Shown one piece after another: positions 436 to 14,607 of a stretch of 25,248 nucleotides of DNA (positions are counted from its first letter, which is position 1; every line of letters begins with the position of its first letter). Position numbers and translations under genes: made by a program. The notes below the pieces were generated by a model. That model searched no databases. It had not been told where the DNA came from and saw nothing but the letters and a program-made list of their open reading frames with translations. The stretch covers positions 1 through 25,248 of the forward strand of contig JBKJVO010000128.1 in assembly GCA_046717305.1 (NCBI GenBank). The letters run 5' to 3'. The DNA comes from Candidatus Limnocylindrales bacterium (GTDB taxonomy: Bacteria > Chloroflexota > Limnocylindria > Limnocylindrales > CSP1-4).

Positions 436-1683
436 TCAGGATGTCGGTTGAAGCCAGCCGTAATAGCCGTAACCGAGGGTGTCTCCGAAGAAGGTCAGCG
501 CCCCGTGCTCATTGATGCGGTGTGCGTTCCGACCATCAGGATCCATCAGGTAGAAGGTCGTCGGGCCCCAGTACATGATGTGCAGCCCGTCCGGCGTCCA
601 GCTTGGGGCTCCAGATCCCTTGGAGGCCGGGATCAGCGACTGAAGGTCCGTCCCATCGGGGCGGACGGTGGAAATGGTGCCCCCGCGATTGAACTCGTGG
701 ATCGGATACGAGTCGAAGACGATCCGCGAGCCGTCGGGCGACCAATCCGCATCACCATACGGAACCCCATCGGGCAGGGCGAGCTCGTGGAGCCCGGTGT
801 CGTCCGCGTTGACGATGAAGATGCTGGAGTCGACGATGGCGTCCTGTGCCGGATCACGATGAACGTCGTGGTACACGATCTGGAGGCCGTCGGGCGACCA
901 GGACGGTTCCGCGAGCCAGACGTCCGGGGACGAGGTCCGCGTGGACTCCAGGATTGTGACGCTGCCGCTCCCCAGATCAAGGATCGCGAGCGCGTTCGAC
1001 TGATCGGTCCCGGTCGAGCGCACGAACGCGATGCGGCCACCGTCGGCCGAGTATGCCGGGGAACCGTCCATGCATTCGTCGGGTTGACCGCTGCAGTCCG
1101 TCGAGAGCAGCCGTGGATCGCCGCCTTCGATGCCGACCTCCCAGATCTGAACGGGGGGGTCCCAGGCGCCGAAGGCGACTGTCGTGCCGTCGGGTGAGAT
1201 GTCGGGGCTGCCCTTCCCAGAGGCCGGAAGACCAGGGGCGAGCTCGTGGAGGCCGGTGCCGTCCGCATGCACGAGCCAGAGCGAGCGTGGGTATTCGACT
1301 CCCGCGGGCGTCGAGCCGTCGGGTGCCTTGCCGAAGTGTTCGAACAGGATCCAGCCAGGGAGCGCCGAATAGTCGACCACGGTTGGTTGTGGCCTCGAGG
1401 TGGGTGTCACGAGCGTCGGTGTCGGGCTCGGTGCGCCGACATCGTTCTGGCCGGGCAGGTTGATATAGATCAGGCCGAGCACGACGACGCCCACAAGGGC
1501 GGTCGCAGCCAGGCGCATCGGCGAGTTCATTGTGGGCAACCTCCACGGGACTCGGAAGTCCCGTTCCTGTGATGTCTGGTCGATTTCGAGGAGGGCGGCT
1601 TCGACGACCCGGTCCGGGGCGTCGGTGGGTCCGAGCTCGAGCCAGGCCCGAGCGTCACGCTCGAATCGGTGCTCGTCGCTCAT
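436..1683 (-). CDS. Probable membrane-anchored anti-sigma factor with extracytoplasmic TolB-like/PD40 beta-propeller
   Basis: About 55-aa N-terminal cytoplasmic segment, one TM (LAATALVGVVVLGLIYI), Pro/Thr linker, then five PD40-type repeats (PDISPDG, PAYSADG, PSWSPDG, ADWSPDG, PSWTPDG). Start overlaps the ECF stop (ATGA, 1680-1683). Confidence 0.78.
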   Translation of the reverse strand: MSDEHRFERDARAWLELGPTDAPDRVVEAALLEIDQTSQERDFRVPWRLPTMNSPMRLAATALVGVVVLGLIYINLPGQNDVGAPSPTPTLVTPTSRPQPTVVDYSALPGWILFEHFGKAPDGSTPAGVEYPRSLWLVHADGTGLHELAPGLPASGKGSPDISPDGTTVAFGAWDPPVQIWEVGIEGGDPRLLSTDCSGQPDECMDGSPAYSADGGRIAFVRSTGTDQSNALAILDLGSGSVTILESTRTSSPDVWLAEPSWSPDGLQIVYHDVHRDPAQDAIVDSSIFIVNADDTGLHELALPDGVPYGDADWSPDGSRIVFDSYPIHEFNRGGTISTVRPDGTDLQSLIPASKGSGAPSWTPDGLHIMYWGPTTFYLMDPDGRNAHRINEHGALTFFGDTLGYGYYGWLQPTS

Positions 1684-2231
1684 GCCAGGCCTTCCTTCTC
1701 GGTGACGGGCTCCCGGCCGGCCTCAATGGCCAGCCGAAGCGCGCGGGTGGCGTAGTGCAGGCGCGATCGGGCCGTGCCGGCGGGGATGCCGAGGGTCCCG
1801 GCGATCTCCACGAGCGGCAGCCCGATGTAGTGGTGCAGGACGAAGACCGCCCGCTGGTCCACGGGGAGCCGGCGGAAGGCCCGTTCGAGCTCGTCGCGTT
1901 CGCCGATCGCGCGGCTTTCATCCGGGGTCGACGCCTGGAATTCAGGCAGGACCCGAACGTTGGCCGCCCAGCGGCGATTTCGACGGACTTCGACGTAACA
2001 GGCGTTGACGAGGACCTTGTGGAGCCATGCGTCGAAACGGTCGATCTCCCGCAGGTGCGGGAGCTGCCGCCAGGCGCTGACGAGCGCGCTCTGCAGAGCG
2101 TCCTCGGCGAGACCCGTGTCGCGAAGGATCCGGAAGGCGATCGCGTACAGCCGATCGCTGACCTGATGCACCAGGCCGGCGAAGGCGTCGCGGTCCCCCT
2201 TTCGGGCCCGTTCCACGAGGTCTCGATCCAC
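1680..2231 (-). CDS. ECF RNA polymerase sigma-70 factor
   Basis: Region 2 (AEDALQSALVSAW...FDAWLHKVLVN) and region 4 (LPVDQRAVFVLHHYIGLPLVEIAGTLGIPAGTARSRLHYA). GTG at 2231 with GGAGG 5 nt upstream is preferred over ATG 2243. Confidence 0.93.
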   Translation of the reverse strand: MDRDLVERARKGDRDAFAGLVHQVSDRLYAIAFRILRDTGLAEDALQSALVSAWRQLPHLREIDRFDAWLHKVLVNACYVEVRRNRRWAANVRVLPEFQASTPDESRAIGERDELERAFRRLPVDQRAVFVLHHYIGLPLVEIAGTLGIPAGTARSRLHYATRALRLAIEAGREPVTEKEGLA

Positions 2232-2278
2232 CTCGGCCTCCATGAGCCGCGCCGTGATGGCCCGGGTCTAGTAGCTTT

Positions 2279-2305: not shown

Positions 2306-2644
2306 GTCGCGCCGCCGCTCCATGAGGGTCACGTCGCGCCACTCCCCGCCCGCGTCGCGGCCGCGGTGGGACGCGGCGATGTAGATGCTCTCCGGGGCGA
2401 TGCCGGCGTAGACCTCTCGAGCGGAGCAGGGCGCCAGGGCGACGAAGCCGGCCACGACGCCGGTCGCGCGCGCCACGAAGCGGCAATGCGGGCGATGCGA
2501 CGCGTCCCAGGCGGGCCAGTTAGGGACGGTCGTGTCGAACGTCGCGACACCGGTCGCCATGCCCTCGCCGTAAATCGCGCGGACGGCCGGCCAGTCCTTG
2601 GGCAGCATCGCCTCGATGACGACGCGAGGCCGCGGGGCGATCAT
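2303..2644 (-). pseudogene. GNAT N-acetyltransferase (Pat/YncA-like) with an in-frame internal deletion
   Basis: DWPAVRAIYGEG.ATG.ATFDT.VP.W..WD...and VYAG...SIYIA..HRG match the family. The sequence then jumps directly to the C-terminal WRDVTLMERR; 113 aa versus about 160-170 expected. Confidence 0.72.
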
Positions 2645-3717
2645 CTCGTGGAGCGGGTGGGACAGGCGACGACCGGCGACCTGAGCACGCCGAGTCGCTC
2701 GATCTGGAGCGTCACCTCGTCGCCCGGCTCAAGCCACCGGCCGAGCGTCGAGTCCTTCACCTCGAGGAGGCAGCCGGTGCCGACCGTGCCCGAGCCGAGG
2801 ATCTCGCCGGGCCGGACGTGGACGTCGGCCGAGGCGCGGGTGAGCATCTGGCCGAACGAGAAGTGGGACGCCGACCACGTTCCCGAGGAGATCGTGGTCT
2901 CCCGGTCGTCCGCACCCCTGACGGAGGCCGACATCGCGAGGTCCGGCCCGGTGGCTCCGGCCGCTCGTACATCAGCGAGCTCGTCCGGCGTCACCAGCCA
3001 TGGTCCGATCGAGGTTGCGAAGTCCTTGCCCTTCGCCGGGCCCATCCGAACCGGCATCTCATCGCGCTGGAGGTCGCGGGCGGACCAGTCGTTGAGCACG
3101 AAGTACCCGCCGATCGCCTCCTCGGCGCGCTCCTCGGGGAGATCGAACGCGGCCGTGTCCACGAGCGCGCCGACCTCGAGCTCGAAGTCCAGTTCGGTTG
3201 AGCCCCGGGGCGCCCAGACCGGGTCACCCGGCCCACGGATCTCCGAGGTGTTCGAGAAGTAGAAGACCGGCATCCGGTACCAGTTCTCCGGGATCTCGCC
3301 GCCGCGACGCTCCCACATCGTCCGAACGTGCTGTTCGAAGGCGTAGAAGTCGCGGAACGCCGGCGGCCGCAGGATCGGGGAGCCGAACCGGAGACCGCTC
3401 GCATCGAGGACGGCGTCGTCGTCAGGGTCAGGCTCGACCGTGGAGCTCGCGGCGCCGAACGCCTCGACGATCTCGGCGAGCGCCTCCACCCGGAGCCCGC
3501 GTGCCAGGTGGTCGTCCAGCGTGATGATCGGCAGGCGGAAGAGGACGCTGTTGTGGGCGCGACGCGGGTCTGCACCGATCAACCGGCGGCGTGCCAACTC
3601 GAGGTCCAGCCAACCGGCCGGATCTGGGTTCGTGGCGGCTCCGGCACCGAGGGCGGCCGCAAGCCGCCACGGGGCGCCGGCCGGGGCGTGTCGCTCGCGA
3701 ACGTGGGCAATCCGCAT
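2641..3717 (-). CDS. fahA: Fumarylacetoacetate hydrolase family protein (probable fumarylacetoacetase)
   Basis: FRDFYAFEQH, PVFYFSN, LDFELE, NDWSARDLQ, KGKDF, GSGT and PGDEVTLQIERLG motifs; located with hmgA and hppD. Confidence 0.85.
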   Translation of the reverse strand: MRIAHVRERHAPAGAPWRLAAALGAGAATNPDPAGWLDLELARRRLIGADPRRAHNSVLFRLPIITLDDHLARGLRVEALAEIVEAFGAASSTVEPDPDDDAVLDASGLRFGSPILRPPAFRDFYAFEQHVRTMWERRGGEIPENWYRMPVFYFSNTSEIRGPGDPVWAPRGSTELDFELEVGALVDTAAFDLPEERAEEAIGGYFVLNDWSARDLQRDEMPVRMGPAKGKDFATSIGPWLVTPDELADVRAAGATGPDLAMSASVRGADDRETTISSGTWSASHFSFGQMLTRASADVHVRPGEILGSGTVGTGCLLEVKDSTLGRWLEPGDEVTLQIERLGVLRSPVVACPTRSTR

Positions 3718-4085: not shown

Positions 4086-4206
4086 GATGCGAGGGGCAGG
4101 TCAGTACGGGCGTTGGGATGCTTACCCCGTCGGCGACGGGGGCTCCCACAAACCGCCCTCGTGTGTCAGGATCGCAGTCCCACAAGACCACCGAGGGCGT
4201 TTGCCA

Positions 4207-5052
4207 ATGCGTCTCCAGCGGCGCCGATTCTCCGAACCCAGCGAAGTCCGCACGTTCCCGCGCGGCCGCGTCGAGGTCGTCGAGCTCGAGGACACCGTCA
4301 TCGGCCGGATGACCTACGAGCCCGGCTGGCGCTGGTCGGTCGACGTCCAGGCGCTCGCCGGCACGGCAACCTGTCAGTACCACCACCTCGGTGTGACCAT
4401 CTCCGGCCACATCCGGGCGCAGATGATCGACGGCACCGAGCTCGAGATCGGTCCGGGTGACGTCTTCGAGATCCCGCCCGGCCACGATGCCTGGGTCGTC
4501 GGCGACGAGCCATGGATCTCCGTCGACTTCGAGGCGATGCGCACCTACGGCAAGGGGAAGGACGCCCAGGTCGAGCGCGTCCTCGCCTCGATCGTGATGA
4601 CCGATATCGTCGATTCCACGCAACGCGCCGGCGAGCTGGGTGCGGCCCGCTGGCGGGACCTCGTCGGCGAGCACAACCGGAAGGCGATGACGGCCGTCGA
4701 CCGGCAGCGGGGACGACTCGTCAAGACCACCGGCGATGGCGTCCTCGCCCAGTTCGACGGGGCGGAGCGCGCCGTCCGCGGCGCCGCCGCGATCCGCGAG
4801 GCCGTCCGCGGCCTCGGCCTCGAGATCCGGGCCGGCGTCCACAGCGGCGAGGTGGAGGCGACCGTCGACGACGTTCGGGGAATCGCGGTCCACACCGCCT
4901 CCCGGATCATGGCCGCCGCCGAGCCCGGTGAGATTCTCGTGTCGGCGACCGTCATGGACCTCGTGGACGGGTCTGATCTGGCCTTCGAGGACGCCGGCGT
5001 CCATGAGCTCAAGGGCCTCCACGGGACGCGGCAGCTCTACCGCCTGGTCTGA
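4207..5052 (+). CDS. Cupin domain fused to class III adenylate/guanylate cyclase (soluble)
   Basis: N-terminal cupin (EPGWRWS..., CQYHHLG, GPGDVFEIPPGHDAWVVGDEP) and C-terminal cyclase (MTDIVDST, VKTTGDG, RAGVHSGEV, DVRGIAVHTASRI, ELKG). ATG 4207 is preferred; the extension to 3967 is low complexity. Confidence 0.88.
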   Translation: MRLQRRRFSEPSEVRTFPRGRVEVVELEDTVIGRMTYEPGWRWSVDVQALAGTATCQYHHLGVTISGHIRAQMIDGTELEIGPGDVFEIPPGHDAWVVGDEPWISVDFEAMRTYGKGKDAQVERVLASIVMTDIVDSTQRAGELGAARWRDLVGEHNRKAMTAVDRQRGRLVKTTGDGVLAQFDGAERAVRGAAAIREAVRGLGLEIRAGVHSGEVEATVDDVRGIAVHTASRIMAAAEPGEILVSATVMDLVDGSDLAFEDAGVHELKGLHGTRQLYRLV

Positions 5053-5105: not shown

Positions 5106-5897
5106 TCAGGCCGTCAGCCTGCGGAAGGCCCATAGCGTGGCGCCCTGGAGGACGACGCCCAGGATCAGGATCGCGAGCACCGCCCTGCCGATGACGTCGC
5201 CCTCGAAGCCGACGGTCATCAGGGAGCGCATCGCCTCGATCACGTAGCTGATCGGGTTCCAGTCGTTGAACGTCTGCAGCCAGTCCGGCATGAGTGCCGG
5301 TGGGACGAAGGCGGTCGACATGAAGGCGATCGGCATGAACAGCAGCGACAGCGTCCCGGTCGCCTGCTCGTTCTTCGTGAGCAGGGCGGGCACCATCGAG
5401 GTGCCGGCCCACGCGACGCCGAACGCCCCACCCAGGAGCACGATCGCCGCGGCGCCAAGCAGGCCCGTGGTCACGTGAGCCCCGAGGAGCACGGCAAGGA
5501 CCAGGATCGCCGCGGCCATCGCGGCCGACTCGAGGAAGAGCGGGACCAGCTCACCGGCGAGGATCGCGAAGCGATTGATCGGGCTGGCCCGCAGCTTGTC
5601 CAGGTAGCCGTTGCGCCAGTCAACGAGGAGGCTGCCGCCCGACCATGCGACCGCAAAGAACACCGTGAACGTGACCTGTCCGGGAGCGAGATAGTCCAGA
5701 TACGAGATGTCGCCATTACCGCTCGCGGCGAACCCCGGGAGCGACACGATGTCCTTGAACAGCTGCGAGAAGACGAACAGCTGGATGAGGGGAAAGAGCA
5801 GGGTCGAGACCGGATTGGAGGGTACCCGGTAGAAGCGCCGCAGGGATCGCCCGCCGAGGAGCCAGGTCTCGCGCATGAAGTCGGCCGCTGCGCTCAT
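5106..5897 (-). CDS. ABC-2 type exporter permease (DrrB-like)
   Basis: Six hydrophobic segments; YLDYLAPG, GYLDKLRASPINR, SxAFVPPALMPDWLQ..NPISY..EAMR motifs; start at MSAAADF. Confidence 0.9.
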   Translation of the reverse strand: MSAAADFMRETWLLGGRSLRRFYRVPSNPVSTLLFPLIQLFVFSQLFKDIVSLPGFAASGNGDISYLDYLAPGQVTFTVFFAVAWSGGSLLVDWRNGYLDKLRASPINRFAILAGELVPLFLESAAMAAAILVLAVLLGAHVTTGLLGAAAIVLLGGAFGVAWAGTSMVPALLTKNEQATGTLSLLFMPIAFMSTAFVPPALMPDWLQTFNDWNPISYVIEAMRSLMTVGFEGDVIGRAVLAILILGVVLQGATLWAFRRLTA

Positions 5898-5901
5898 CGC
5901 T

Positions 5902-6930
5902 CTACCACCAGCCGGTCTCGAGGGGCCGGTCGGCCTCCTCGGCCCGGATGCGACGGCCGCAGTACCGCAGGAACACATCGTCGAGGGTCGGCTCGCGCAT
6001 CGTCAGCCCGGTCACCCGCACGCCGTCGCCATCCAGCCGACGAAGCAGCGTTGGCACGGCCGAGTGGGCATTCGCCACGGCGACCGCGATGCCGACGGTC
6101 GATGGCTCGACCGCGATGACCCCGTCGATTCCCGACAGGCGGGCAATCGCGTCCGCCTGAGCGGACGCGAGGGTCTCGGACCCGTTGGTGTGGCCGAGGG
6201 CGATCTCGACAGCATCGGCCCCGACCGAACGCTTGAGTTCGCGCGGGCTGCCCTCGACGACGATCCGCCCGGCGTCCACGATCGCCAGGCGTTCGCACAG
6301 CCGATCCGCCTCCTCCATGTAGTGCGTCGTCAGGAACATCGTGGTGCCGGCCCGATTGATCCGGACGAGCTCCTCCCAGAGCGCCGTCCGGCTCTGGGGG
6401 TCCAGTCCCTCGGTCGGCTCGTCCAGGAAGAGCACGGCGGGCCGATGGACCAGCGCACTGGCGAGATCGAGCCGGCGCCGCATTCCGCCGGAGTACGTCC
6501 CGACCAGGCGGCCGGCGGCGGCCGTCAGGTTCATCAGCTCCAGCAGCTCGTCGACGCGGCGCCGCAGCTCGGGTCCGGGCACCCGATGGAGCCGGCCGAT
6601 GAGCTCGAGGTTCTCGCGGCCGGTGAGGAGGTTCTCCAGGGCCACGGTCTGCATCGCGAGGCCGATCATCGCCCGGACCTTCGCGGCGTCGCGGACGACG
6701 TCGAGGCCCGCTACCCGGGCGACGCCTGAGGTGGCCCGGGCGAGCGTGGCGAGGATCCGGATCGCCGTCGTCTTCCCCGCACCCTTCGGGCCCAGGAACC
6801 CGAAGAACTCCCCGGCCCGGACGGCGACGCTGATCCCGTCCAGGGCCCGGATGGGATCGCCCCCGCGGCTCGCCGGGTAGACCTTGACGAGATCGACGAT
6901 TTCAACGACGGGGACTTCCGTGGGCTCCAT
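5902..6930 (-). CDS. ABC exporter ATP-binding protein (DrrA-like)
   Basis: Walker A GPKGAGKT, signature YSGGMRRR, Walker B LFLDEPT, TTHY switch, C-terminal EPTLDDVFL; start at MEPTEVP (6930). Confidence 0.92.
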   Translation of the reverse strand: MEPTEVPVVEIVDLVKVYPASRGGDPIRALDGISVAVRAGEFFGFLGPKGAGKTTAIRILATLARATSGVARVAGLDVVRDAAKVRAMIGLAMQTVALENLLTGRENLELIGRLHRVPGPELRRRVDELLELMNLTAAAGRLVGTYSGGMRRRLDLASALVHRPAVLFLDEPTEGLDPQSRTALWEELVRINRAGTTMFLTTHYMEEADRLCERLAIVDAGRIVVEGSPRELKRSVGADAVEIALGHTNGSETLASAQADAIARLSGIDGVIAVEPSTVGIAVAVANAHSAVPTLLRRLDGDGVRVTGLTMREPTLDDVFLRYCGRRIRAEEADRPLETGWW

Positions 6931-6941
6931 CGGTTCTCCGC

Positions 6942-7445
6942 TCAGAAGGGCTTGAACATCATGAGCCAGAGGATGACGAGGAACCCGACGCCACCGACGA
7001 CGGCGGTCAACTCGGGCCGCCGGGACTGCGTGAGGGTCACCACCTCCTCGAACGGCAGCGGCACCGGATCTGGCTGGTCCTCCTTGAGGTTGCCGGGCCG
7101 CTGGCCAAGGGCCCGGCGGATCTCCGCGAAGTGGAACCCGGCAAGCGGCGTCATGAGGCCACCGACGAGGATGAACACGACGAGCGAGATCCAGATCCAG
7201 GCTTGCCCGAAGTCGCCGCGCACGATGCCGGCAACGATCCCGGATACGAGGAGCACGAGCAGTCCGATTCCCGCGAGGTTGAGGGACCAGGCGGACAGGT
7301 CCAGAAGGGCCAGCATCCGGGCGCCCTCCCGCTCCTGGCGCAGCCGGAACGCCACTGCCATGGAGACGCCGTGGCCGGCCGCGAACAGAAAGGCGCCGGC
7401 GACGTGGAGGAACCTCAGCCAGTCCTGATACGGGGTCAGGTCCAT
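6942..7445 (-). CDS. DUF2269-like 4-TM membrane protein
   Basis: WLRFLH at TM1, four TM segments, C-terminal LWLMMFKPF typical of the family; tightly packed in the operon. Confidence 0.75.
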   Translation of the reverse strand: MDLTPYQDWLRFLHVAGAFLFAAGHGVSMAVAFRLRQEREGARMLALLDLSAWSLNLAGIGLLVLLVSGIVAGIVRGDFGQAWIWISLVVFILVGGLMTPLAGFHFAEIRRALGQRPGNLKEDQPDPVPLPFEEVVTLTQSRRPELTAVVGGVGFLVILWLMMFKPF

Positions 7446-7891
7446 TCACTTCCCTCCCTCGTGGATGTGCCCGCACCGGGTACGGGCGTCGCGGGGCCTT
7501 CGGCCGGCGCCTTCCGCGCCACCTCGCGCCATGCGCGTCGTGCGTACCACACGGCGAGCGCGAAGAGCAACATTGCGTTGACCGGGTGGAGCGCGGCGAG
7601 GGCGGGAACCGACGCCCGGAACTGCGGCAGCGCCGTCTGGACGACATACAGCACGAGCAGCCCAAAGCTGATCCCGATCTCCCGGCGTCCGACGCGGGCC
7701 GCCACGGCGGTCAGCACGACCGCCAGTGCGATGAGTCCGACGACGGTGTAGCCGAACTCGATGTGGGTCTTGAAGTCGCCGCTGCCGCCGAGGTTGGCGA
7801 TGGCCGCCCCCGCCAGGAACACCTGGATCACGATGCTGGCCACAAACAACCAGGCCGCGAGGGCGTGGATCTGCCGGGCGATCGAGCGCAT
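7436..7891 (-). CDS. DUF6220-like 4-TM membrane protein
   Basis: IQVFLAG...H and VVQ..LP...ALHPVNA motifs; SD AGGAAGGAG; 3' end overlaps the next gene by 10 nt. Confidence 0.7.
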   Translation of the reverse strand: MRSIARQIHALAAWLFVASIVIQVFLAGAAIANLGGSGDFKTHIEFGYTVVGLIALAVVLTAVAARVGRREIGISFGLLVLYVVQTALPQFRASVPALAALHPVNAMLLFALAVWYARRAWREVARKAPAEGPATPVPGAGTSTREGSEWT

Positions 7892-7904
7892 CGCTCCTTC
7901 CTCC

Positions 7905-8702
7905 CTACTGCACGTCGATCGTGCCGAGCATGCCCGCCTCGCGGTGACCGGGGATCGCGCAGTAGAACTCGAGCGTGCCGGCGGCAGTCGGCTTCACGGC
8001 AAGCGCGACCGTGGCATTCGCCGGGACCTGGACGTGGAGATTGAGCGCGTCGATGTCGAACGAGTGGGCGAACGAGTCGTTGTTCTGGACGAACAGGCCC
8101 AGGACGTCCGACGATGTCATGGAGTAGCTCGTCGTCAGGAACTTCGTCCCCTCGGCGACCAGGGCCCCCGTCGTCGTCGGGGCCGCCGCGATCGCCGCGC
8201 CGGCGCCGGTGGAGTTCGCCGCCAGGTAGCCCGTCGCGAAGGCCCCGGCGGTGGCGCCGGCAACGATGGCCACGGCCCATCGGGCCCGGGCGCCGCTGCG
8301 TGACGGCGTCGCCGGGTCTCCCGCCTCGCGGTACGCGGTGATCCCGGCCACCACCAGGACGATCGTCGCTACGACCAGGGGCAGGATCGCGGTGAACGCG
8401 ATGTCGGCCGGGTGCGTGAGCGGGTACGGGATGAACGGGGCGTTCATCAGGAGAAACAGCACCGGCGGGATTAGGAGGCCGATCCACAGCCAGCGCCGAC
8501 GCGGCGCGGAACGCAGGAACGTCGACAGGCCGGCACCGATCACGAAGAGCACCAGGAAGGCGAGGATCAGCGGCAGGAACGCCTTCGTCTCGGGACTCTC
8601 GTCCAGGGCCGGCAGGATCAGGACCGCGAGGATGTACACGAACAGGACGGCCAGCAGCCAGTACGTGGCGGCGTAGACCTTCATCGCGAACGTTCTCGTC
8701 AT
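7905..8702 (-). CDS. 5-TM membrane protein with C-terminal cupredoxin (type-1 copper) domain
   Basis: Five hydrophobic helices, then N-x-D-S-F-A-H-S-F and C-x4-H-x4-M (CAIPGHREAGM); SD GAGGAGG. Confidence 0.85.
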   Translation of the reverse strand: MTRTFAMKVYAATYWLLAVLFVYILAVLILPALDESPETKAFLPLILAFLVLFVIGAGLSTFLRSAPRRRWLWIGLLIPPVLFLLMNAPFIPYPLTHPADIAFTAILPLVVATIVLVVAGITAYREAGDPATPSRSGARARWAVAIVAGATAGAFATGYLAANSTGAGAAIAAAPTTTGALVAEGTKFLTTSYSMTSSDVLGLFVQNNDSFAHSFDIDALNLHVQVPANATVALAVKPTAAGTLEFYCAIPGHREAGMLGTIDVQ

Positions 8703-8766
8703 CGCCGGTGGACCTCCTCGCTCTCGGCCCGTTCGGGCTTGTCGCCCGATGTGTAGCCGCTGGGGT

Positions 8767-8784
8767 GTCCCGGTGTCATGGGAC
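8767..8784. promoter_or_regulatory. Candidate response-regulator operator GTCCC-N8-GGGAC
   Basis: Dyad 65 bp upstream of the cupredoxin gene; the spacer contains a -35-like ATGACA on the minus strand (8779-8774). Confidence 0.35.
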
Positions 8785-8830
8785 CGCCGTCACGAATCCG
8801 CCTGGGTCGCGCCGGCCGCGGCGTCGCCGT

Positions 8831-9511
8831 CTAGGAGGTCTGCCGTCGCTCGCCGCCCAGGCCGGCCTCGCGCGCCCGGACGATGGCCTGCGCCCGGTCC
8901 GCCACCTGGAGTTTGCTGAAGATGTTCGACACGTGGTTGCGGACGGTCTTCGGCGACACGCCCAGCCGCCCGGTGATCTCCGTGTTGTTCAATCCCCGCG
9001 CGATCATGTCGAGGATCTCCCGCTCCCGATCGGTCAGCTCGGGGAACACCGTCGCCTCCACCGCCGGACGGGCGGCAAAGAAGGCGGCCAGCCGCCGGGC
9101 GATCGCGGGCCCGAAGATCGCCTCGCCCGATGCGACGCCCCGGATCGCCCGGACGAGCTCGGCGCGGTCCGCGCCCTTCAGGAGGTAGCCGCGGGCGCCC
9201 GCCTTGAGCGCGCCGAAGACCTGGTCGTCGTCCTGGTACATCGAGAGCACCAGAACGGCGATGTGGGGGCTCGTCGAGACGATCCGGCGGGTGGCCTCGA
9301 TCCCGTCGAGGCCGGGCATGTTGAGGTCCATGACCACGACGTCGGGCTGAAGGTCCGCGGCCCGGTCGACCGCCGCCTCACCGCTCGCCGCCTGACCCAC
9401 TACCTCGAACCCGTCGATGGTCCCGAGCAGGGCCTCCAGGCCGGTGCGGAACGGCGCGTGGTCATCCACCACCAGGATCCGGATCGGCTCGGAGGGGCCC
9501 TGGTGATCCAT
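8831..9511 (-). CDS. NarL/LuxR-family response regulator (REC + HTH)
   Basis: VVDDH, VVVMDLNMP (phospho-Asp), LSM, GYLLK, and ELTDREREIL...VRNHVSNIFSKL LuxR HTH. Confidence 0.95.
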   Translation of the reverse strand: MDHQGPSEPIRILVVDDHAPFRTGLEALLGTIDGFEVVGQAASGEAAVDRAADLQPDVVVMDLNMPGLDGIEATRRIVSTSPHIAVLVLSMYQDDDQVFGALKAGARGYLLKGADRAELVRAIRGVASGEAIFGPAIARRLAAFFAARPAVEATVFPELTDREREILDMIARGLNNTEITGRLGVSPKTVRNHVSNIFSKLQVADRAQAIVRAREAGLGGERRQTS

Positions 9512-9518
9512 CTCCAGC

Positions 9519-11789
9519 CTAGCTCCAGACCCGGCCGTCGAGCGGCAGGCGGGCGAAGACTCGAGTGCCGCCGCCGGCGATCGATTCGACGACGCACGTC
9601 CCGCCGACTTCGGCGGCCCGCTCCCGCATCGAGAGCAGGCCGATCCCGGGCCGGAGCCCGGGCGGCAGGCCCCGACCGTCGTCGGTGACCTCGACCTCCA
9701 GCGCGCGGTCCTGGTCGCCTGCCTCCGAGACCCTCACCCGACACGTCCGTCCCTCGGCATGGCGGGCCGCATTCGTCATCGCTTCAACGGCGATCCGGTA
9801 CGCGGCAACCTCCACCGCCGCCGACAGCTCGGGCAGCACCCCCGCCGCCGCCACGTCGAGGGTCTGCTCGGGACGGAGGCGGCCAGCCTGGGCCTGGATC
9901 GCCCCGATGAGTCCGAGCTCATCGAGCGCCGGTGGTCGGAGAGCGTCCACGAGTCGGCGGATGTCCGTCAGGGCGCCGCGGACCTCCCCCCGGAGCTCCG
10001 CGAGGACGCGCTCGGCTCCGGCCGGATCGCGCGCCGCAAGCTCGGCGGCCACCTCGGCGCGCATGCCGATGGCCGCCAGGGTCGGGCCGAGCCCGTCGTG
10101 AAGGTCGCGCCTGATGCGTCGCCGCTCCTCCTCGCGCGCAACGACGAGGCGCTCGCGCGATGCGATGAGGTCGAGCGTGAGCCCGAGCGCATGCACCGCA
10201 GCGCCGGCCTGCCGGGCGAGCGCGTTGAGCAGCTGCAGGTCCGCGATCGAGAGTGGCTCCGTTGGAGAGCGGGGCGCGACGAGCAGGTCGCCCACGACCT
10301 CGGCGCCGTACACAAGCGGCACCTCCACGACCTTGCCCGGCGGTTGCCGGCCATGCGCGATCGTGCGCCCGACATCGCCCGCCGGGCCGATCCGGATGGC
10401 GACCCACGGCAGGCGGAGGGACTCCGCCACGGTCCGCACGATGACCGTCGGCGCCTCGATCGGGTCGAGCGTGTCGTCCAGCCGCTCTCCGAGTCGCGTC
10501 AGCGCCCGATACGGGTCGTCGCGATCGCCGTACATCACGCGGTTGACGGTCCTCTGGATGACGTCGCGAATCGGCAGCGCGACGACGGCCGCAAGGCCGG
10601 TGGCCAGCAGCGACGCCGAAAAGCCGCCCTGGAACCGGAGGAACGTCCCGAGGATGGAGACGGAGATCGCGTAGATCACAACGATCGAGACCGTCGCGCC
10701 GCCGTAGACGAGGGTCCGGTTGATCGCCACGTCGATGTCAAAGAGGCGGTACCGCAGGATGCCCGCGGCGATGCCCAGCGGCATCGGCAGCGCCAGGAGC
10801 CCTACCGCGCTCCACGGGACGATCGGTCGGCCGGTCAGCAGCTGCGGCAGCAGGAGGAGGACCAGCGACGAGACCGTCGCGACGAGGCCGCCGACTGCCG
10901 CCCAGCGCACCTGATCGCGGACGGCCGGCGGTGACGCCCGAAAGGCTCGCACCGTCAGGGCGATCCCGGCCACGATGGTCGGGATGATCACGAGCGTCTG
11001 CACGGTCGCCCACGTTCCCACCCAGGCGGTCGACGACGGTGCGCTCAGCCTCGACGCCACCAGCACGACGACGTACCCACCGAGCGGCAGCCCGTAGACC
11101 ACGGCGAGGGCGCGCCGACTCGGGACCTCGGACGGACGGGCCATGGCAAGCGGGAGGTGGAGTGCACCCGCCGGCCAGAGGAGCATGTACAGGCCGCCGG
11201 CCGTGAAGGCGTGGAGCAGGAACGGCCAGCCGCGCACGACGTCGCTCACCTGGAGCCCCAGCAGCCACGGCAGCGTGCTGCCGGTGACGCCGACGGCGGC
11301 CACCGCGAGCGCCACCCCCGCCGAGGCTTCGGGGCGCCGCCAGAGGACGTACCCGGCGACAAGCTGGAGGACGACGGTGAACAGGAGGACGCTCCAGTTG
11401 TCCACCAGCGTTCCGCCAATGTCATCGGGTGCGAGGGCGACCGCGACATCTAGGGTGGCGCCGTCACGTCGGACCGTATACGTGACACTGTTTGAGCCGC
11501 CCAACGCCGATCGATCCAGGCTGGGGTCCAGGATGCCGTCCAACCACGCGGCGAGGGGACGCCCCTCGACGGCTGTGACCACGTCGCCCGGGGCCAGGCC
11601 GACTGCGGGCCGATCGACGTCGGCGATCTGTGCGCCGTCCGTCGTCCACGCGTCGGCGTAGAACGCGATGGTTGCGCCGTCGGAGGATCCGCCCACGCGC
11701 CAGGCGAGGAAACCAAGGCTGGCCACGATCGATAGGCCGGCCAGGATCCAGACCCCCGTCCGTCGCGGTCGGTCTAACACGATCGTCAC
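9519..11789 (-). CDS. Sensor histidine kinase: TM, PDZ-like, multi-TM, GAF-like, HisKA_3, HATPase
   Basis: GLAPGDVVTAVEGRP (PDZ-like), about 10 TM segments, ERRRIRRDLHDGLGP (H-box), EAMTNAARHA, DDGRG, GIGLLSMRERA. GTG 11789 has an SD (GAAGGGGAG) and an upstream -10-like TATCCT; ATG 11855 is the alternative. Confidence 0.92.
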   Translation of the reverse strand: MTIVLDRPRRTGVWILAGLSIVASLGFLAWRVGGSSDGATIAFYADAWTTDGAQIADVDRPAVGLAPGDVVTAVEGRPLAAWLDGILDPSLDRSALGGSNSVTYTVRRDGATLDVAVALAPDDIGGTLVDNWSVLLFTVVLQLVAGYVLWRRPEASAGVALAVAAVGVTGSTLPWLLGLQVSDVVRGWPFLLHAFTAGGLYMLLWPAGALHLPLAMARPSEVPSRRALAVVYGLPLGGYVVVLVASRLSAPSSTAWVGTWATVQTLVIIPTIVAGIALTVRAFRASPPAVRDQVRWAAVGGLVATVSSLVLLLLPQLLTGRPIVPWSAVGLLALPMPLGIAAGILRYRLFDIDVAINRTLVYGGATVSIVVIYAISVSILGTFLRFQGGFSASLLATGLAAVVALPIRDVIQRTVNRVMYGDRDDPYRALTRLGERLDDTLDPIEAPTVIVRTVAESLRLPWVAIRIGPAGDVGRTIAHGRQPPGKVVEVPLVYGAEVVGDLLVAPRSPTEPLSIADLQLLNALARQAGAAVHALGLTLDLIASRERLVVAREEERRRIRRDLHDGLGPTLAAIGMRAEVAAELAARDPAGAERVLAELRGEVRGALTDIRRLVDALRPPALDELGLIGAIQAQAGRLRPEQTLDVAAAGVLPELSAAVEVAAYRIAVEAMTNAARHAEGRTCRVRVSEAGDQDRALEVEVTDDGRGLPPGLRPGIGLLSMRERAAEVGGTCVVESIAGGGTRVFARLPLDGRVWS

Positions 11790-12029
11790 GACTCCCCTTC
11801 CTGCGGCGACAGGATAGTCCGGGCGCTTCGATGAGAGGGACGCTCGGTCGGCCATCGCGGGTCGGTTTCACCCGCAGGATGCCCGGCCCGATCAATCGAC
11901 CGTCCTCGACGCCTGCCGTGGGTGGCTCGCTCGGCCGCCTGCTGACCCCGCCCTGCGTCTGTCAGGCAACGGCCCATCGCGAGCCCGGGTGAGGCTCCCC
12001 AGCCGTCGCACATCTCGGAGGGTGGACAC

Positions 12030-12491
12030 GTGTCGACAGATCAGCGCCCCGCAGGCGGCTCGCACCATCGGATGCCTTCCGTGCGAAGGCTCCTCGTCAT
12101 CGTCGCCACCATCGCGGCCCTCACCATGCTGGCGCCAGCTGCGTCGGCGACCTCGCCGCTCGGGCCGATCTCCCTGACGAAGACATGCGACGCCCCAGAC
12201 CACTGCACCGTCCAAACGTCTCTCACCAACAGTCCGCTCCGTGTGGGCACCGAGGGCTTCTACAACGGCCCGGTTCCCGTCAGCCGGCTGAGCAGCCACG
12301 TCGTTCTCGTGACACCCGGCGATGCAGGGACGACAACCGGGCACTGCACACTCAACTTCGTGAGCGCCATCGGAACGTGCACGTTCGCCCGGGGGACCGG
12401 TTCGCTCGCCGGATTCCATGCCAACCTGACCGTCACCACCGCTGACTGGGAGACGTTCCTCTGGGAGGGCACCTATCACTTCGACCGCTAG
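12030..12491 (+). CDS. Small secreted beta-rich protein of unknown function
   Basis: Signal peptide (RRLLVIVATIAALTMLAPAASA), four Cys, C-terminal GTCTFARGTGSLAGF..LTV; start could be 12030, 12072 or 12081. Confidence 0.72.
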   Translation: MSTDQRPAGGSHHRMPSVRRLLVIVATIAALTMLAPAASATSPLGPISLTKTCDAPDHCTVQTSLTNSPLRVGTEGFYNGPVPVSRLSSHVVLVTPGDAGTTTGHCTLNFVSAIGTCTFARGTGSLAGFHANLTVTTADWETFLWEGTYHFDR

Positions 12492-12697
12492 CCTCGGCTG
12501 ACCTTCGCGTCGAGAGGTGCCACCCCAGGACTGACCGGCGATCTACCGGCTCCCGCTCGATTGGCGCGCCCCAGGTGTCATCTCGACACGGGCGGACGCT
12601 TCGGTGCGTCGATCGAGCGGAAGTTCGGGTTGAGGGATCCGGCCCTCGGTCCGAACCGGCCGATCCACCCTCGACCGCCAGCGCAGAACCGGGGTCC

Positions 12698-12744
12698 GTT
12701 GCCACACGAAATGCCGAGTCGTCCGTGGATGTCGAAGTGACAAC
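12698..12744. repeat. Imperfect palindrome (REP-like?)
   Basis: GTTGCCAC (12698-12705) and GTGACAAC (12737-12744) pair 7/8; inner CGAAAT/ATGTCG pair 5/6; intergenic. Confidence 0.4.
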
Positions 12745-12787
12745 TCGAAGCGGTGGCCCCAGAGCCGACGAAGCTGTCAGCCCGCGA

Positions 12788-14607
<1,820 letters not shown>

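Follow-up and report, generated by a model that had tools for sequence, protein, structure and literature searches.

In Escherichia coli, the two-component system HprSR (YedVW) lies beside the MsrPQ operon, whose membrane heme-b protein, MsrQ, hands electrons on to a redox protein outside the cytoplasm; oxidative or copper stress in the envelope induces this operon. Here we describe a seven-gene locus of Candidatus Limnocylindrales (Chloroflexota) that, by analogy, may follow the same logic, in which a sensor pair is combined with a small polytopic redox protein and a partner facing outward. The locus lies in a 25,248-nucleotide stretch of DNA, referred to below as the window, and encodes a histidine kinase (HK), a response regulator (RR), a membrane protein with a type-1 copper (cupredoxin) domain (CUP), two small membrane proteins of the families DUF6220 and DUF2269, and the ATPase and permease of an ATP-binding cassette (ABC) exporter. 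It differs from HprSR-MsrPQ in that the RR is of the NarL/LiaR type, not the OmpR type, and in that an ABC exporter is attached. Furthermore, DUF6220 and DUF2269 have no sequence relation to the ferric-reductase-like MsrQ, and a blue-copper domain takes the place of the molybdoenzyme as the outward partner.

Two further membrane proteins are close in kind. PuuD (DUF989 plus cytochrome c), a fusion of a membrane oxidase with an outward-facing cytochrome c, is reported to resemble DUF2269 distantly (PMC4562309), and HemJ (PgdH2, UPF0093) is a membrane b-type hemoprotein (PMC13564367). Both are small-helix-bundle membrane oxidoreductases, a DUF2269 relative weakly matches both, and one DUF6220 fusion described below has a PuuD-like layout. 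In contrast, the DUF2269 protein of the window matches neither family, the scores of its relative are below the cut-offs, and the cupredoxin that would act as carrier is encoded by a gene of its own. No literature linking HemJ, CopD, and PuuD was found. The copper domain itself recalls auracyanin and the tethered cupredoxins of three-domain Cu nitrite reductases, which are likewise membrane-anchored or partner-tethered type-1 copper domains with a C-x4-H-x4-M loop. In CUP, however, this domain follows a conserved domain of five transmembrane (TM) helices with an H-P-x-D motif, which is more than a lipid or single-helix anchor, and no reductase or photosynthetic partner is encoded near CUP.

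In kind, the locus is a two-component-controlled envelope module, with two functionally uncharacterized families at its core. The initial annotation of the window had called the combination undescribed, and we also found no published description of it in the literature searched. The searchable literature yielded no mention of DUF6220 and only passing mention of DUF2269. As far as this literature goes, the combination, the 5-TM cupredoxin architecture, any function of DUF6220 or DUF2269, and the operator and its regulon are all undescribed.

The reading that we favor, and to which we give about an even chance, is an inducible relay that carries electrons across the membrane to a blue-copper site facing outward, an exporter being co-regulated with it. 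The locus would then consist of a dedicated two-component switch and its target operon. The membrane kinase would phosphorylate the NarL/LiaR-type regulator, which would bind a single 27-nt operator (positions 8767 to 8793) overlapping the −35 region and drive transcription of five translationally coupled genes. DUF2269 and DUF6220 would be four-helix membrane proteins with a bound cofactor, most likely heme b, and would connect the quinone pool or a cytoplasmic donor to the type-1 copper center of CUP, with their contacts and the direction of electron flow presumed. CUP would exchange electrons with an extracytoplasmic partner, and the DrrAB-type exporter would be a co-regulated accessory in some lineages only. 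We favor this relay because of three observations taken together, namely, the redox-carrier company of DUF6220, a HemJ/PuuD-like relative of DUF2269, and the canonical type-1 site of CUP. Judged from the sequences, they favor a relay that ends at, or starts from, the outward copper center.

The DUF6220 protein matched its Pfam family (PF19728) with 39.2 bits against a cut-off of 29.8, and all 17 aligned orthologs matched as well. It has four TM helices and six invariant residues (W14, Q23, H43, Q85, H102, and N105). H43 and H102 lie at the outer ends of TM2 and TM4, both glutamines lie mid-membrane in TM1 and TM3, and AlphaFold2 modeled the protein as a four-helix bundle (pLDDT 89.9). DUF6220 genes adjoin cupredoxin genes in Limnocylindria, Anaerolineae, Solirubrobacterales, and Myxococcota, the cupredoxins of the latter three (one genome each) being short. 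In two Actinomycetota genomes, DUF6220 is found immediately downstream of Rieske [2Fe-2S] proteins with a twin-arginine translocation (TAT) signal. The family comprises 2,127 representative clusters at 50% identity, and in one of these (P0252), DUF6220 is fused via a fifth TM helix to a CxxCH cytochrome c. Because three unrelated classes of extracytoplasmic one-electron carriers adjoin or are fused to DUF6220, we argue that it is a membrane redox partner or anchor. Weak matches to cytochrome b561 (PF01292) were obtained for 9 of the 17 members (best E value of 0.041, ∼14 bits against a cut-off of 30.1); DUF6220 has only two invariant histidines, while the b561 family is defined by two His pairs for two hemes. 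Arginase, AlkZ, CorA, pantoate ligase, and HtrA genes also stand near DUF6220 in sampled Chloroflexota (family f3), but these neighbors follow lineage by synteny only and were set aside as uninformative on function.

The DUF2269 protein matched PF10027 over profile positions 3 to 150 of 150 (43.1 bits against a cut-off of 28), as did 16 of 16 orthologs. It also has four TM helices, with H14, H25, M98, and M162 invariant; of these, H14 and M162 are retained without exception also in an alignment extended to more distant DUF2269/DUF4149-like members of the regulon. In its model (pLDDT 90.5), a short additional helix accompanies a four-helix bundle. DUF6220 (H43 and H102) and DUF2269 (H14 and H25) are therefore the two His-bearing four-TM proteins of the initial annotation, now assigned to families above Pfam cut-offs. 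In both, the invariant His/Met and His/Gln residues inside or at the ends of TM helices speak for the redox reading. A DUF2269 relative encoded 2.3 kb downstream of an operator copy in the same locus matched HemJ/UPF0093 (PF03653) with an E value of 3e−6, its 28 bits falling short of the cut-off of 34.2, and the N terminus of the membrane urate oxidase PuuD with an E value of 0.024. The DUF2269 protein of the window gave no HemJ/UPF0093 match even at E values up to 5. Its invariant H14 lies in TM1, as does the conserved His of HemJ, to whose heme ligand it may correspond. True HemJ was found in none of 121 Chloroflexota genomes. Beyond DUF2269 clusters and clusters without a name, a feature search of the ESM Atlas brought up nothing, and a search for longer or fused DUF2269 forms returned one uninformative protein. 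No homology between DUF6220 and DUF2269 was found (hhalign probability of 0.4%), and a complex prediction for the two scored 0.00, which is uninformative either way.

CUP has five predicted TM helices and a C-terminal type-1 copper domain that, by the positive-inside rule, probably faces outward. The copper ligands H213, C248, H253, and M258 are invariant in 31 homologs, with a C-x4-H-x4-M loop, as are W73 and the motif H97-P98-x-D100 in an outer loop. The match to Pfam Cupredoxin_1 fell just below the 27-bit cut-off (26.6 bits), and many homologs carry a precomputed PF13473 assignment. A CUP profile matched the tethered N-terminal cupredoxin domains of three-domain Cu nitrite reductases in the PDB (E value of 2.4e−8), followed by auracyanin B, nitrosocyanin, and plastocyanin (best matches from 2.4e−8 to 2.9e−5). 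At the level of sequence, the type-1 copper membrane protein predicted from the window alone is thus borne out. Because of a shared HP motif before TM4, CUP was also considered as a DUF6220-cupredoxin fusion; this was rejected, since hhalign gave probabilities of 0.8% for its 5-TM domain against DUF6220 and 16% against DUF2269.

To assess recurrence, 80 loci were fetched from species-representative genomes via the CUP profile, contigs encoding individual CUP homologs were added, and the seven proteins and three family hidden Markov models (HMMs) were mapped onto them. Gene calls in these foreign loci are based on open reading frames (ORFs) in high-GC DNA, with shadow ORFs removed by clustering and G+C content at third codon positions (GC3), and the counts are approximate. 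Individual loci are cited below by their handles (L021, for example). The complete seven-gene set was also found in L022, L026, L028, L035, L036, L038, L043, L044, and the metagenome contig L300, about nine Limnocylindria-like loci. In L036 and L044, the order is permuted to DUF6220-DUF2269-CUP-ABC. That the set was kept while its order was shuffled speaks well for a functional link. Counted within 6 kb of CUP at 37 non-redundant loci, HK is present at 25, RR at 24, DUF6220 at 17, DUF2269 at 15, the ATPase at 15, and the permease at 10. CUP, DUF6220, and DUF2269 are encoded together at about 12 loci. The seven-gene arrangement exceeds chance and recurs in many genomes, so the co-occurrence that had been proposed as a check on the locus was observed.

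The set is not obligate. L021, the nearest relative (CUP 81% identical, same hppD...FAH synteny), has HK-RR-CUP-DUF6220-DUF2269 without ABC genes, and L167, from the same genus, has HK-RR-DUF6220-DUF2269 without either the cupredoxin or the ABC pair. L029, L031, and L032 each have three DUF6220 paralogs and no DUF2269, L045 and L050 have CUP and DUF2269 only, as does L054 with an apparently fragmented CUP, and many CUP paralogs stand alone. A 259-aa protein upstream of one such paralog in L023 is unrelated to any module family and was discarded as a candidate member. DUF6220 was found in 41 of 301 Chloroflexota genomes, and DUF2269 adjoins it in 12 of the 40 DUF6220 loci examined. Together with L021 and L167, these counts indicate that the constant core is the two-component system and DUF6220, usually with DUF2269, and that the cupredoxin and the exporter are accessories. 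Therefore, the seven genes do not form one obligate system, as had first been read from the window. Of the inducible membrane redox and efflux module inferred there, the redox part is sustained by the neighbors and fusion of DUF6220, and the exporter is optional; detoxification by efflux and Cu or heme handling are possible roles.

Alignment of the spacers between RR and the next gene in 17 loci revealed an operator-like element of 27 nt (Table 1). It comprises a GGGAC/GTCCC inverted repeat (GGGAC-N4-GTCCC form), a −35-like ATGACA, and a third GGGAC; its parts in the window are GTGAC-GGCG-GTCCC-ATGAC-ACC-GGGAC, and its consensus is G[G/T]GAC-N4-NYCCC-[A/G]TGAC-N3-GGGAC. None of the 17 orthologous loci examined lacks the element in this spacer, and it occurs ahead of CUP and of DUF6220 alike. 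This indicates that it travels with the regulator and the operon start and not with a given coding sequence. The 2.1-Mb genome has a single copy, and allowing 2 mismatches still yields a single site in the window, versus 0 expected by chance. Across 1.92 Mb of fetched loci, we found 27 copies, all but four of them on the same strand upstream of module genes, Sco1, or a remote DUF2269. The 174-nt divergent spacer between HK and the gene at 12030 to 12491 contains no operator, and none precedes the kinase gene of the window. From this distribution, the element is very probably the operator to which this regulator orthogroup would bind, and in this genome it would govern only the five-gene operon. 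The link between the target genes and the adjacent regulator that the initial annotation had proposed is thus supported by a conserved element behind RR. A −10-like box, conserved in position and sequence in the aligned spacers, would complete the promoter of the five-gene operon together with the operator. A simple sigma-70 consensus scan called no promoter, the −10-like box included, and its one terminator-like site lies inside the RR gene and is within chance.

Further copies extend the putative regulon. L030 has a second copy, ahead of two genes that encode a 204-aa membrane protein and DUF2269, the latter ∼6.7 kb upstream of CUP. L043 has three more, which precede genes for a DUF4149/DUF2269-like four-TM protein, a small secreted protein, and a PEP-utilizer mobile-domain protein. 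An exact-pattern scan of JGI metagenomes yielded at least 122 oriented operator sites. Among the 122 matches listed, 54 adjoin a homologous two-component system; the regulator lies immediately upstream at 22, and a 684-aa kinase lacking the PDZ domain of the window kinase lies immediately downstream at 31, which suggests autoregulated systems. Among these listed matches, DUF6220 follows at 16 sites, DUF2269 at 8, and the full cupredoxin/ABC set at one, the last count again at odds with a single obligate system.

Other genes behind the operator in the metagenomic and fetched loci were recorded as well. In L275 (895 to 2949) and 30 other listed metagenome loci, the 684-aa kinase is followed by the regulator and then by a 215-aa sigma factor resembling the extracytoplasmic function (ECF) type. 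Small secreted proteins of ∼136 to 140 aa with no family recur directly behind the operator (L271, 372 to 782; L203; L043, 5179 to 5598). After the predicted signal peptide they read ...AAHEC... or ...AAIHEM..., with a histidine within the first three residues, which could be an amino-terminal copper site. In L282 (7646 to 9698), the operator is followed by a 211-aa gene of no family, a TPMT/TehB-like S-adenosylmethionine (SAM) methyltransferase gene, a gene for a 208-aa membrane protein, and then the gene for the HemJ-like DUF2269 relative; a methyltransferase of the same type lies behind the operator again on L301. In Actinomycetota (L177, 300 to 1300; L179, 1100 to 1330; L180, 1020 to 1400), DUF6220 stands behind a GerE-type regulator with an N-terminal membrane segment. 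The upstream element there is different, consisting of direct repeats ATGAACC-N4-(A/T)TGAACC followed by CCTTTCGGCCGATGCC, and in L177 a gene for an Anthrone_oxy/DUF1772-like four-TM protein lies between the regulator and DUF6220.

Several observations weigh against an electron relay. Foldseek searches of the PDB with the DUF6220 model returned generic four-helix bundles, with cytochrome b561, cytochrome b6, and bd-oxidase subunits scoring no better than designed bundles, and a VIA-align wide search with the DUF2269 model returned generic four-helix bundles only. The cytochrome b561 matches of DUF6220 and the HemJ match of the DUF2269 relative are all below curated cut-offs. In the loci examined, DUF6220 and DUF2269 often have no recognizable redox carrier nearby, and the neighborhood has no conserved cytoplasmic reductase and no obvious conserved terminal partner. 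The relay also leaves the role of the ABC exporter unexplained. Finally, the same operator precedes Sco1, possibly Cu,Zn-superoxide dismutase (SOD), a methyltransferase, and uncharacterized membrane proteins. Because of these targets, the regulon may serve a response to copper or to general envelope stress and not electron transfer as such.

The copper alternative holds that the two-component system answers envelope copper excess or shortage, and that CUP, Sco1 (in other lineages), and the His/Met-bearing four-TM proteins handle copper by binding, moving, or inserting it, much as CopC/CopD or Sco proteins do. The ABC-2 exporter might then aid metal or cofactor export, by analogy with NosFY for N2O reductase. 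In L056, L058, and L060, from an unclassified bacterial lineage, the operator is followed by a SCO1/SenC gene and then a CUP homolog, and in L056 and the near-identical L057, HK and RR genes come after the Sco1-CUP pair. As read from these sequences, the Sco1 loci link the regulator family to a second class of cuproprotein. A Cu,Zn-SOD gene was found after the operator in L252 (2015 to 2584; Pfam confirmed, with a gene for a 203-aa membrane protein in between) and probably in L253, there judged by sequence only. Since Sco1, SOD, and cupredoxins are all cuproproteins, a copper-supply or copper-stress regulon is a serious rival to the relay. It fits the CopCD/YcnJ and Sco systems in having an outward copper-binding beta-sandwich and His-bearing polytopic proteins. 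It also fits the His/Met pairs of DUF2269, which are near both membrane faces, the invariant H-P-x-D in the outer loop of CUP, and a weak match of the NCBIfam CopI model to the copper-site loop of CUP (25.2 bits against a cut-off of 280). The nearest fold to the DUF6220 model in an Atlas search, DUF4149/TMEM205-like with a TM-score of 0.66, is a weak lead in the same direction. However, the CUP site is a canonical buried type-1 electron-transfer site and not a labile transfer site, so that the locus departs from CopCD, YcnJ, and Sco in its redox copper as well as in lacking any CopC or CopD family match. CopA, CopZ, CsoR, CopC, and CopD were not recognized in or near the conserved loci, and neither DUF2269 nor DUF6220 members matched CopD (PF05425) at E values up to 5. 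The family alignment of the kinase has no conserved His, Cys, or Met in the sensor part. No linked kinase or regulator is visible on the SOD contigs L252 and L253, and membership of Cu,Zn-SOD in the regulon is therefore only a lead. Moreover, DUF6220 also has partners that contain no copper, namely, Rieske proteins and cytochrome c. On balance we regard the copper alternative as unlikely.

The operator also bears on the signal. The published consensus of the DosR box is TTSGGGACTWWAGTCCCSAA (PMC2275270), and the left half of our element (GGGAC-N4-GTCCC) has the same core. A hypoxia or redox-gas regulon like that of DosR/DevR would have the GAF-like domain of the kinase sense O2, NO, CO, or redox state, and the membrane redox proteins would re-route respiration at low oxygen. 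Like DosRS/DosT (DevRS) of mycobacteria, the locus pairs a NarL-family regulator with a HisKA_3 kinase that has a GAF-like module, as in DevS and DosT, and DevR is among the closer solved relatives of the RR (E value of 4e−35). However, VraR and NarL outscore DevR, the GAF match of the kinase is weak and partial (23.5 bits, below the cut-off), and the kinase is polytopic with a PDZ insert, whereas DevS and DosT are soluble. The element differs in having two further half-sites and a GC-rich spacer. The target genes also differ, and no universal stress protein (USP) gene or other typical Dos-regulon gene lies behind the operator among the matches listed. We consider this alternative very unlikely. 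It names a signal and is compatible with the electron relay, and the DosR resemblance is best taken as a lead on that signal, not as membership.

Searches against Pfam and NCBIfam substantiated the NarL-type two-component system of the initial annotation. The RR consists of REC and GerE domains (NarL/LuxR type), and the kinase gene lies 7 nt from it and encodes HisKA_3 with its H-box and HATPase_c, an organization that agrees with NarL/LuxR-type systems. The closest solved relatives of the RR are VraR (E value of 5e−45), NarL, DevR, and DesR. The kinase comprises TM1, an extracytoplasmic PDZ-like domain (about residues 60 to 145), a block of 7 to 8 TM helices, the GAF-like domain, HisKA_3 (H586), and HATPase_c; besides GAF, there is a weak HisKA_7TM match. 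Its exact start codon is uncertain, with conservation starting near residue 25. H586, in an R-D-L-H-D box, is conserved in 27 kinases. By single-sequence Pfam search, the PDZ domain was below threshold (E values of 0.2 and then 0.025). A profile of 14 orthologous kinase N termini, however, matched the PDZ domains of RseP, DegQ, and DegP in the PDB with E values of 3.6e−8 to 1e−4, and therefore the PDZ assignment of the initial annotation holds. Three PDZ families match in 3 to 6 of the 14 orthologs, and, judged from the flanking TM segments, the domain is probably outside the membrane. The PDZ insertion is confined to Limnocylindria-type kinases and is lacking in their 684-aa relatives under the same operator. 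Therefore, PDZ cannot be the general sensing element, contrary to the suggestion that the signal is perceived through it.

The exporter had been annotated as DrrAB type, which proved half right. The ATPase passes the cut-off of the DrrA subfamily TIGR01188 (327.9 bits against 312.45) and also matches ABC_tran and DrrA1-3_C. In contrast, the permease matches the general family ABC2_membrane only (E value of 2.4e−25) and falls below the cut-off of the DrrB subfamily TIGR01247 (90.3 bits against 223). Under a third alternative, the locus serves sensing and efflux of antimicrobial peptides or xenobiotics, like Bce, Lia/Vra, or DrrAB systems. The PDZ/7TM kinase would sense peptides or membrane damage and induce the exporter, the small membrane proteins would be accessory or immunity-type proteins, and the cupredoxin would be a passenger. 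The likeness to LiaFSR/VraSR, BceRS-BceAB, and DrrAB lies in a HisKA_3 kinase with a NarL-type RR nearest to the envelope-stress regulators VraR/LiaR, in the adjacent ABC transporter, and in the DrrA-subfamily ATPase. PDZ domains typically bind peptide C termini, the one here is of the RseP/DegP type, and the TPMT/TehB-like methyltransferases behind the operator in other loci would also suit this alternative. However, the ABC pair is absent from L021 and from most operator-controlled loci, being present at 2 of the 122 metagenomic sites among the matches listed, and PDZ is absent from many kinases of the same operator family. That pump and PDZ are both dispensable across the family weakens the peptide alternative. 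Unlike the described systems, the locus has no LiaF-like or BceB-like partner, its kinase architecture is different, its exporter is optional, and its conserved targets are cofactor-type membrane proteins. Invariant TM His, Met, and Gln residues and the redox company of DUF6220 would be unexpected for passive immunity proteins. We judge a function in peptide or xenobiotic efflux to be quite unlikely.

The window is one whole 25-kb contig (JBKJVO010000128.1) of a metagenome-assembled genome (MAG) of 2.1 Mb in 355 contigs, ∼81% complete, with 70% G+C (GCA_046717305.1). Its nearest relatives are MAGs labeled Candidatus Limnocylindrales/Limnocylindria or Chloroflexota, from soil, groundwater, and sediment. 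Genes were delimited by GC3 frame analysis and an ORF listing, and domains were assigned with Pfam and NCBIfam. This analysis upheld the seven consecutive genes on one strand (5106 to 11855, minus strand; order HK-RR-CUP-DUF6220-DUF2269-ABC ATPase-ABC-2 permease) and their tight packing from CUP to the permease, with measured gaps of 4 to 13 nt and one 10-nt overlap. AGGAGG-like or GGAGG ribosome-binding sites lie ahead of CUP, DUF6220, and DUF2269, and a weaker GGAG lies ahead of the ATPase gene.

TABLE 1 Features of the window, and SCO1/SenC genes behind the operator in other loci (positions refer to the window unless a locus handle is given)
Feature	Position	Strand	Remarks
HK	9519-11855	-	first gene of block; 778 aa
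RR	8831-9511	-	226 aa; 7-nt gap from HK
Operator-like element (27 nt)	8767-8793	-	GTGACGGCGGTCCCATGACACCGGGAC; ends 64 nt before CUP start codon
−10-like box TACACAT	8749-8755	-	consensus TAnAnnT across loci; 11 nt past operator, 18 nt after ATGACA
CUP	7905-8702	-	265 aa; 128-nt gap from RR
DUF6220	7436-7891	-	151 aa; 13-nt gap from CUP
DUF2269	6942-7445	-	167 aa; 10-nt overlap with DUF6220
ABC ATPase	5902-6930	-	342 aa; 11-nt gap from DUF2269
ABC-2 permease	5106-5897	-	263 aa; 4-nt gap from ATPase
Divergent small secreted-looking protein	12030-12491	+	153 aa; signal-peptide-like N terminus
hppD	12788-13956	-	one flank; frameshifted in this assembly
FAA-hydrolase-family gene	2641-3717	-	other flank
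Soluble cupin-class III nucleotide cyclase fusion	4204-5052	+	between block and FAA-hydrolase gene, convergent to permease gene
SCO1/SenC genes	L056:2570-3169; L058:185-784; L060:5577-6155		Pfam E value of 1e−26; HCTDVCP motif

The divergent ORF for a secreted protein beside the kinase gene exists as first annotated. Its product had no family match in Pfam or NCBIfam, and among the fetched loci its homologs occur only near the close relatives L021 and L043. It is a flanking gene, and the data do not support module membership. The position of the block between hppD and fahA was also recovered, with an FAA-hydrolase-family gene on the one side and a cupin-cyclase gene in between. Several relatives (L021 and L228) have the cupin-cyclase gene in the same place, next to the module and to the FAA-hydrolase gene, and further copies are found in L153, L169, L234, and L299. 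The FAA-hydrolase-family gene is a recurrent downstream neighbor in L026, L030, L036, L044, L158, L167, and L228, fairly remote relatives included, whatever the module content; this may reflect synteny alone or a connection with homogentisate/tyrosine catabolism. The hppD reading frame breaks near 12933, with the N-terminal part in the frame of ORF 12433 to 13956 and the C-terminal part in that of ORF 12788 to 14191. At the junction of the two frames, contigs of two soil runs from the same study (X1 and X3) have one more G after position 12933, so the frameshift is probably an assembly error or a strain indel and not the mark of a dead gene. Farther out, an ECF sigma factor gene (1680 to 2243, minus strand) overlaps a PD40/WD40-like beta-propeller gene (436 to 1683, minus strand) by 4 nt, and this pair (436 to 2243) looks like a sigma/anti-sigma-type pair.

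A wider form of the electron relay can be stated. DUF6220 and DUF2269 would be two new families of small heme-binding proteins, generic membrane plugs that wire extracytoplasmic one-electron carriers (blue-copper, Rieske, and cytochrome c) to the membrane redox pool. In soil Chloroflexota, they would be switched by a dedicated two-component system via a Dos-box-like operator, giving a new inducible electron-export chain with a 5-TM cupredoxin. In this full form, we hold the proposal to be doubtful. If the relay is right, it would give two DUF families a first testable role, as the membrane partner of outward-facing electron carriers, and it would add an inducible route of cell-surface electron exchange to the MsrPQ-, DsbD-, and PuuD-type systems. 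CUP would then be a new blue-copper architecture, a conserved 5-TM domain joined to a type-1 copper domain. Even under the copper-trafficking alternative, the operator-defined regulon newly links Sco1, cupredoxins, DUF6220, and DUF2269. For the uncultured Limnocylindria, which are abundant in soil and freshwater, the locus provides a set of regulator, operator, and regulon whose cis element is precise enough for binding and reporter tests. Together with the associations with cupredoxins, Rieske proteins, and cytochrome c, this operator-defined regulon makes the function of two sizeable DUF families testable.

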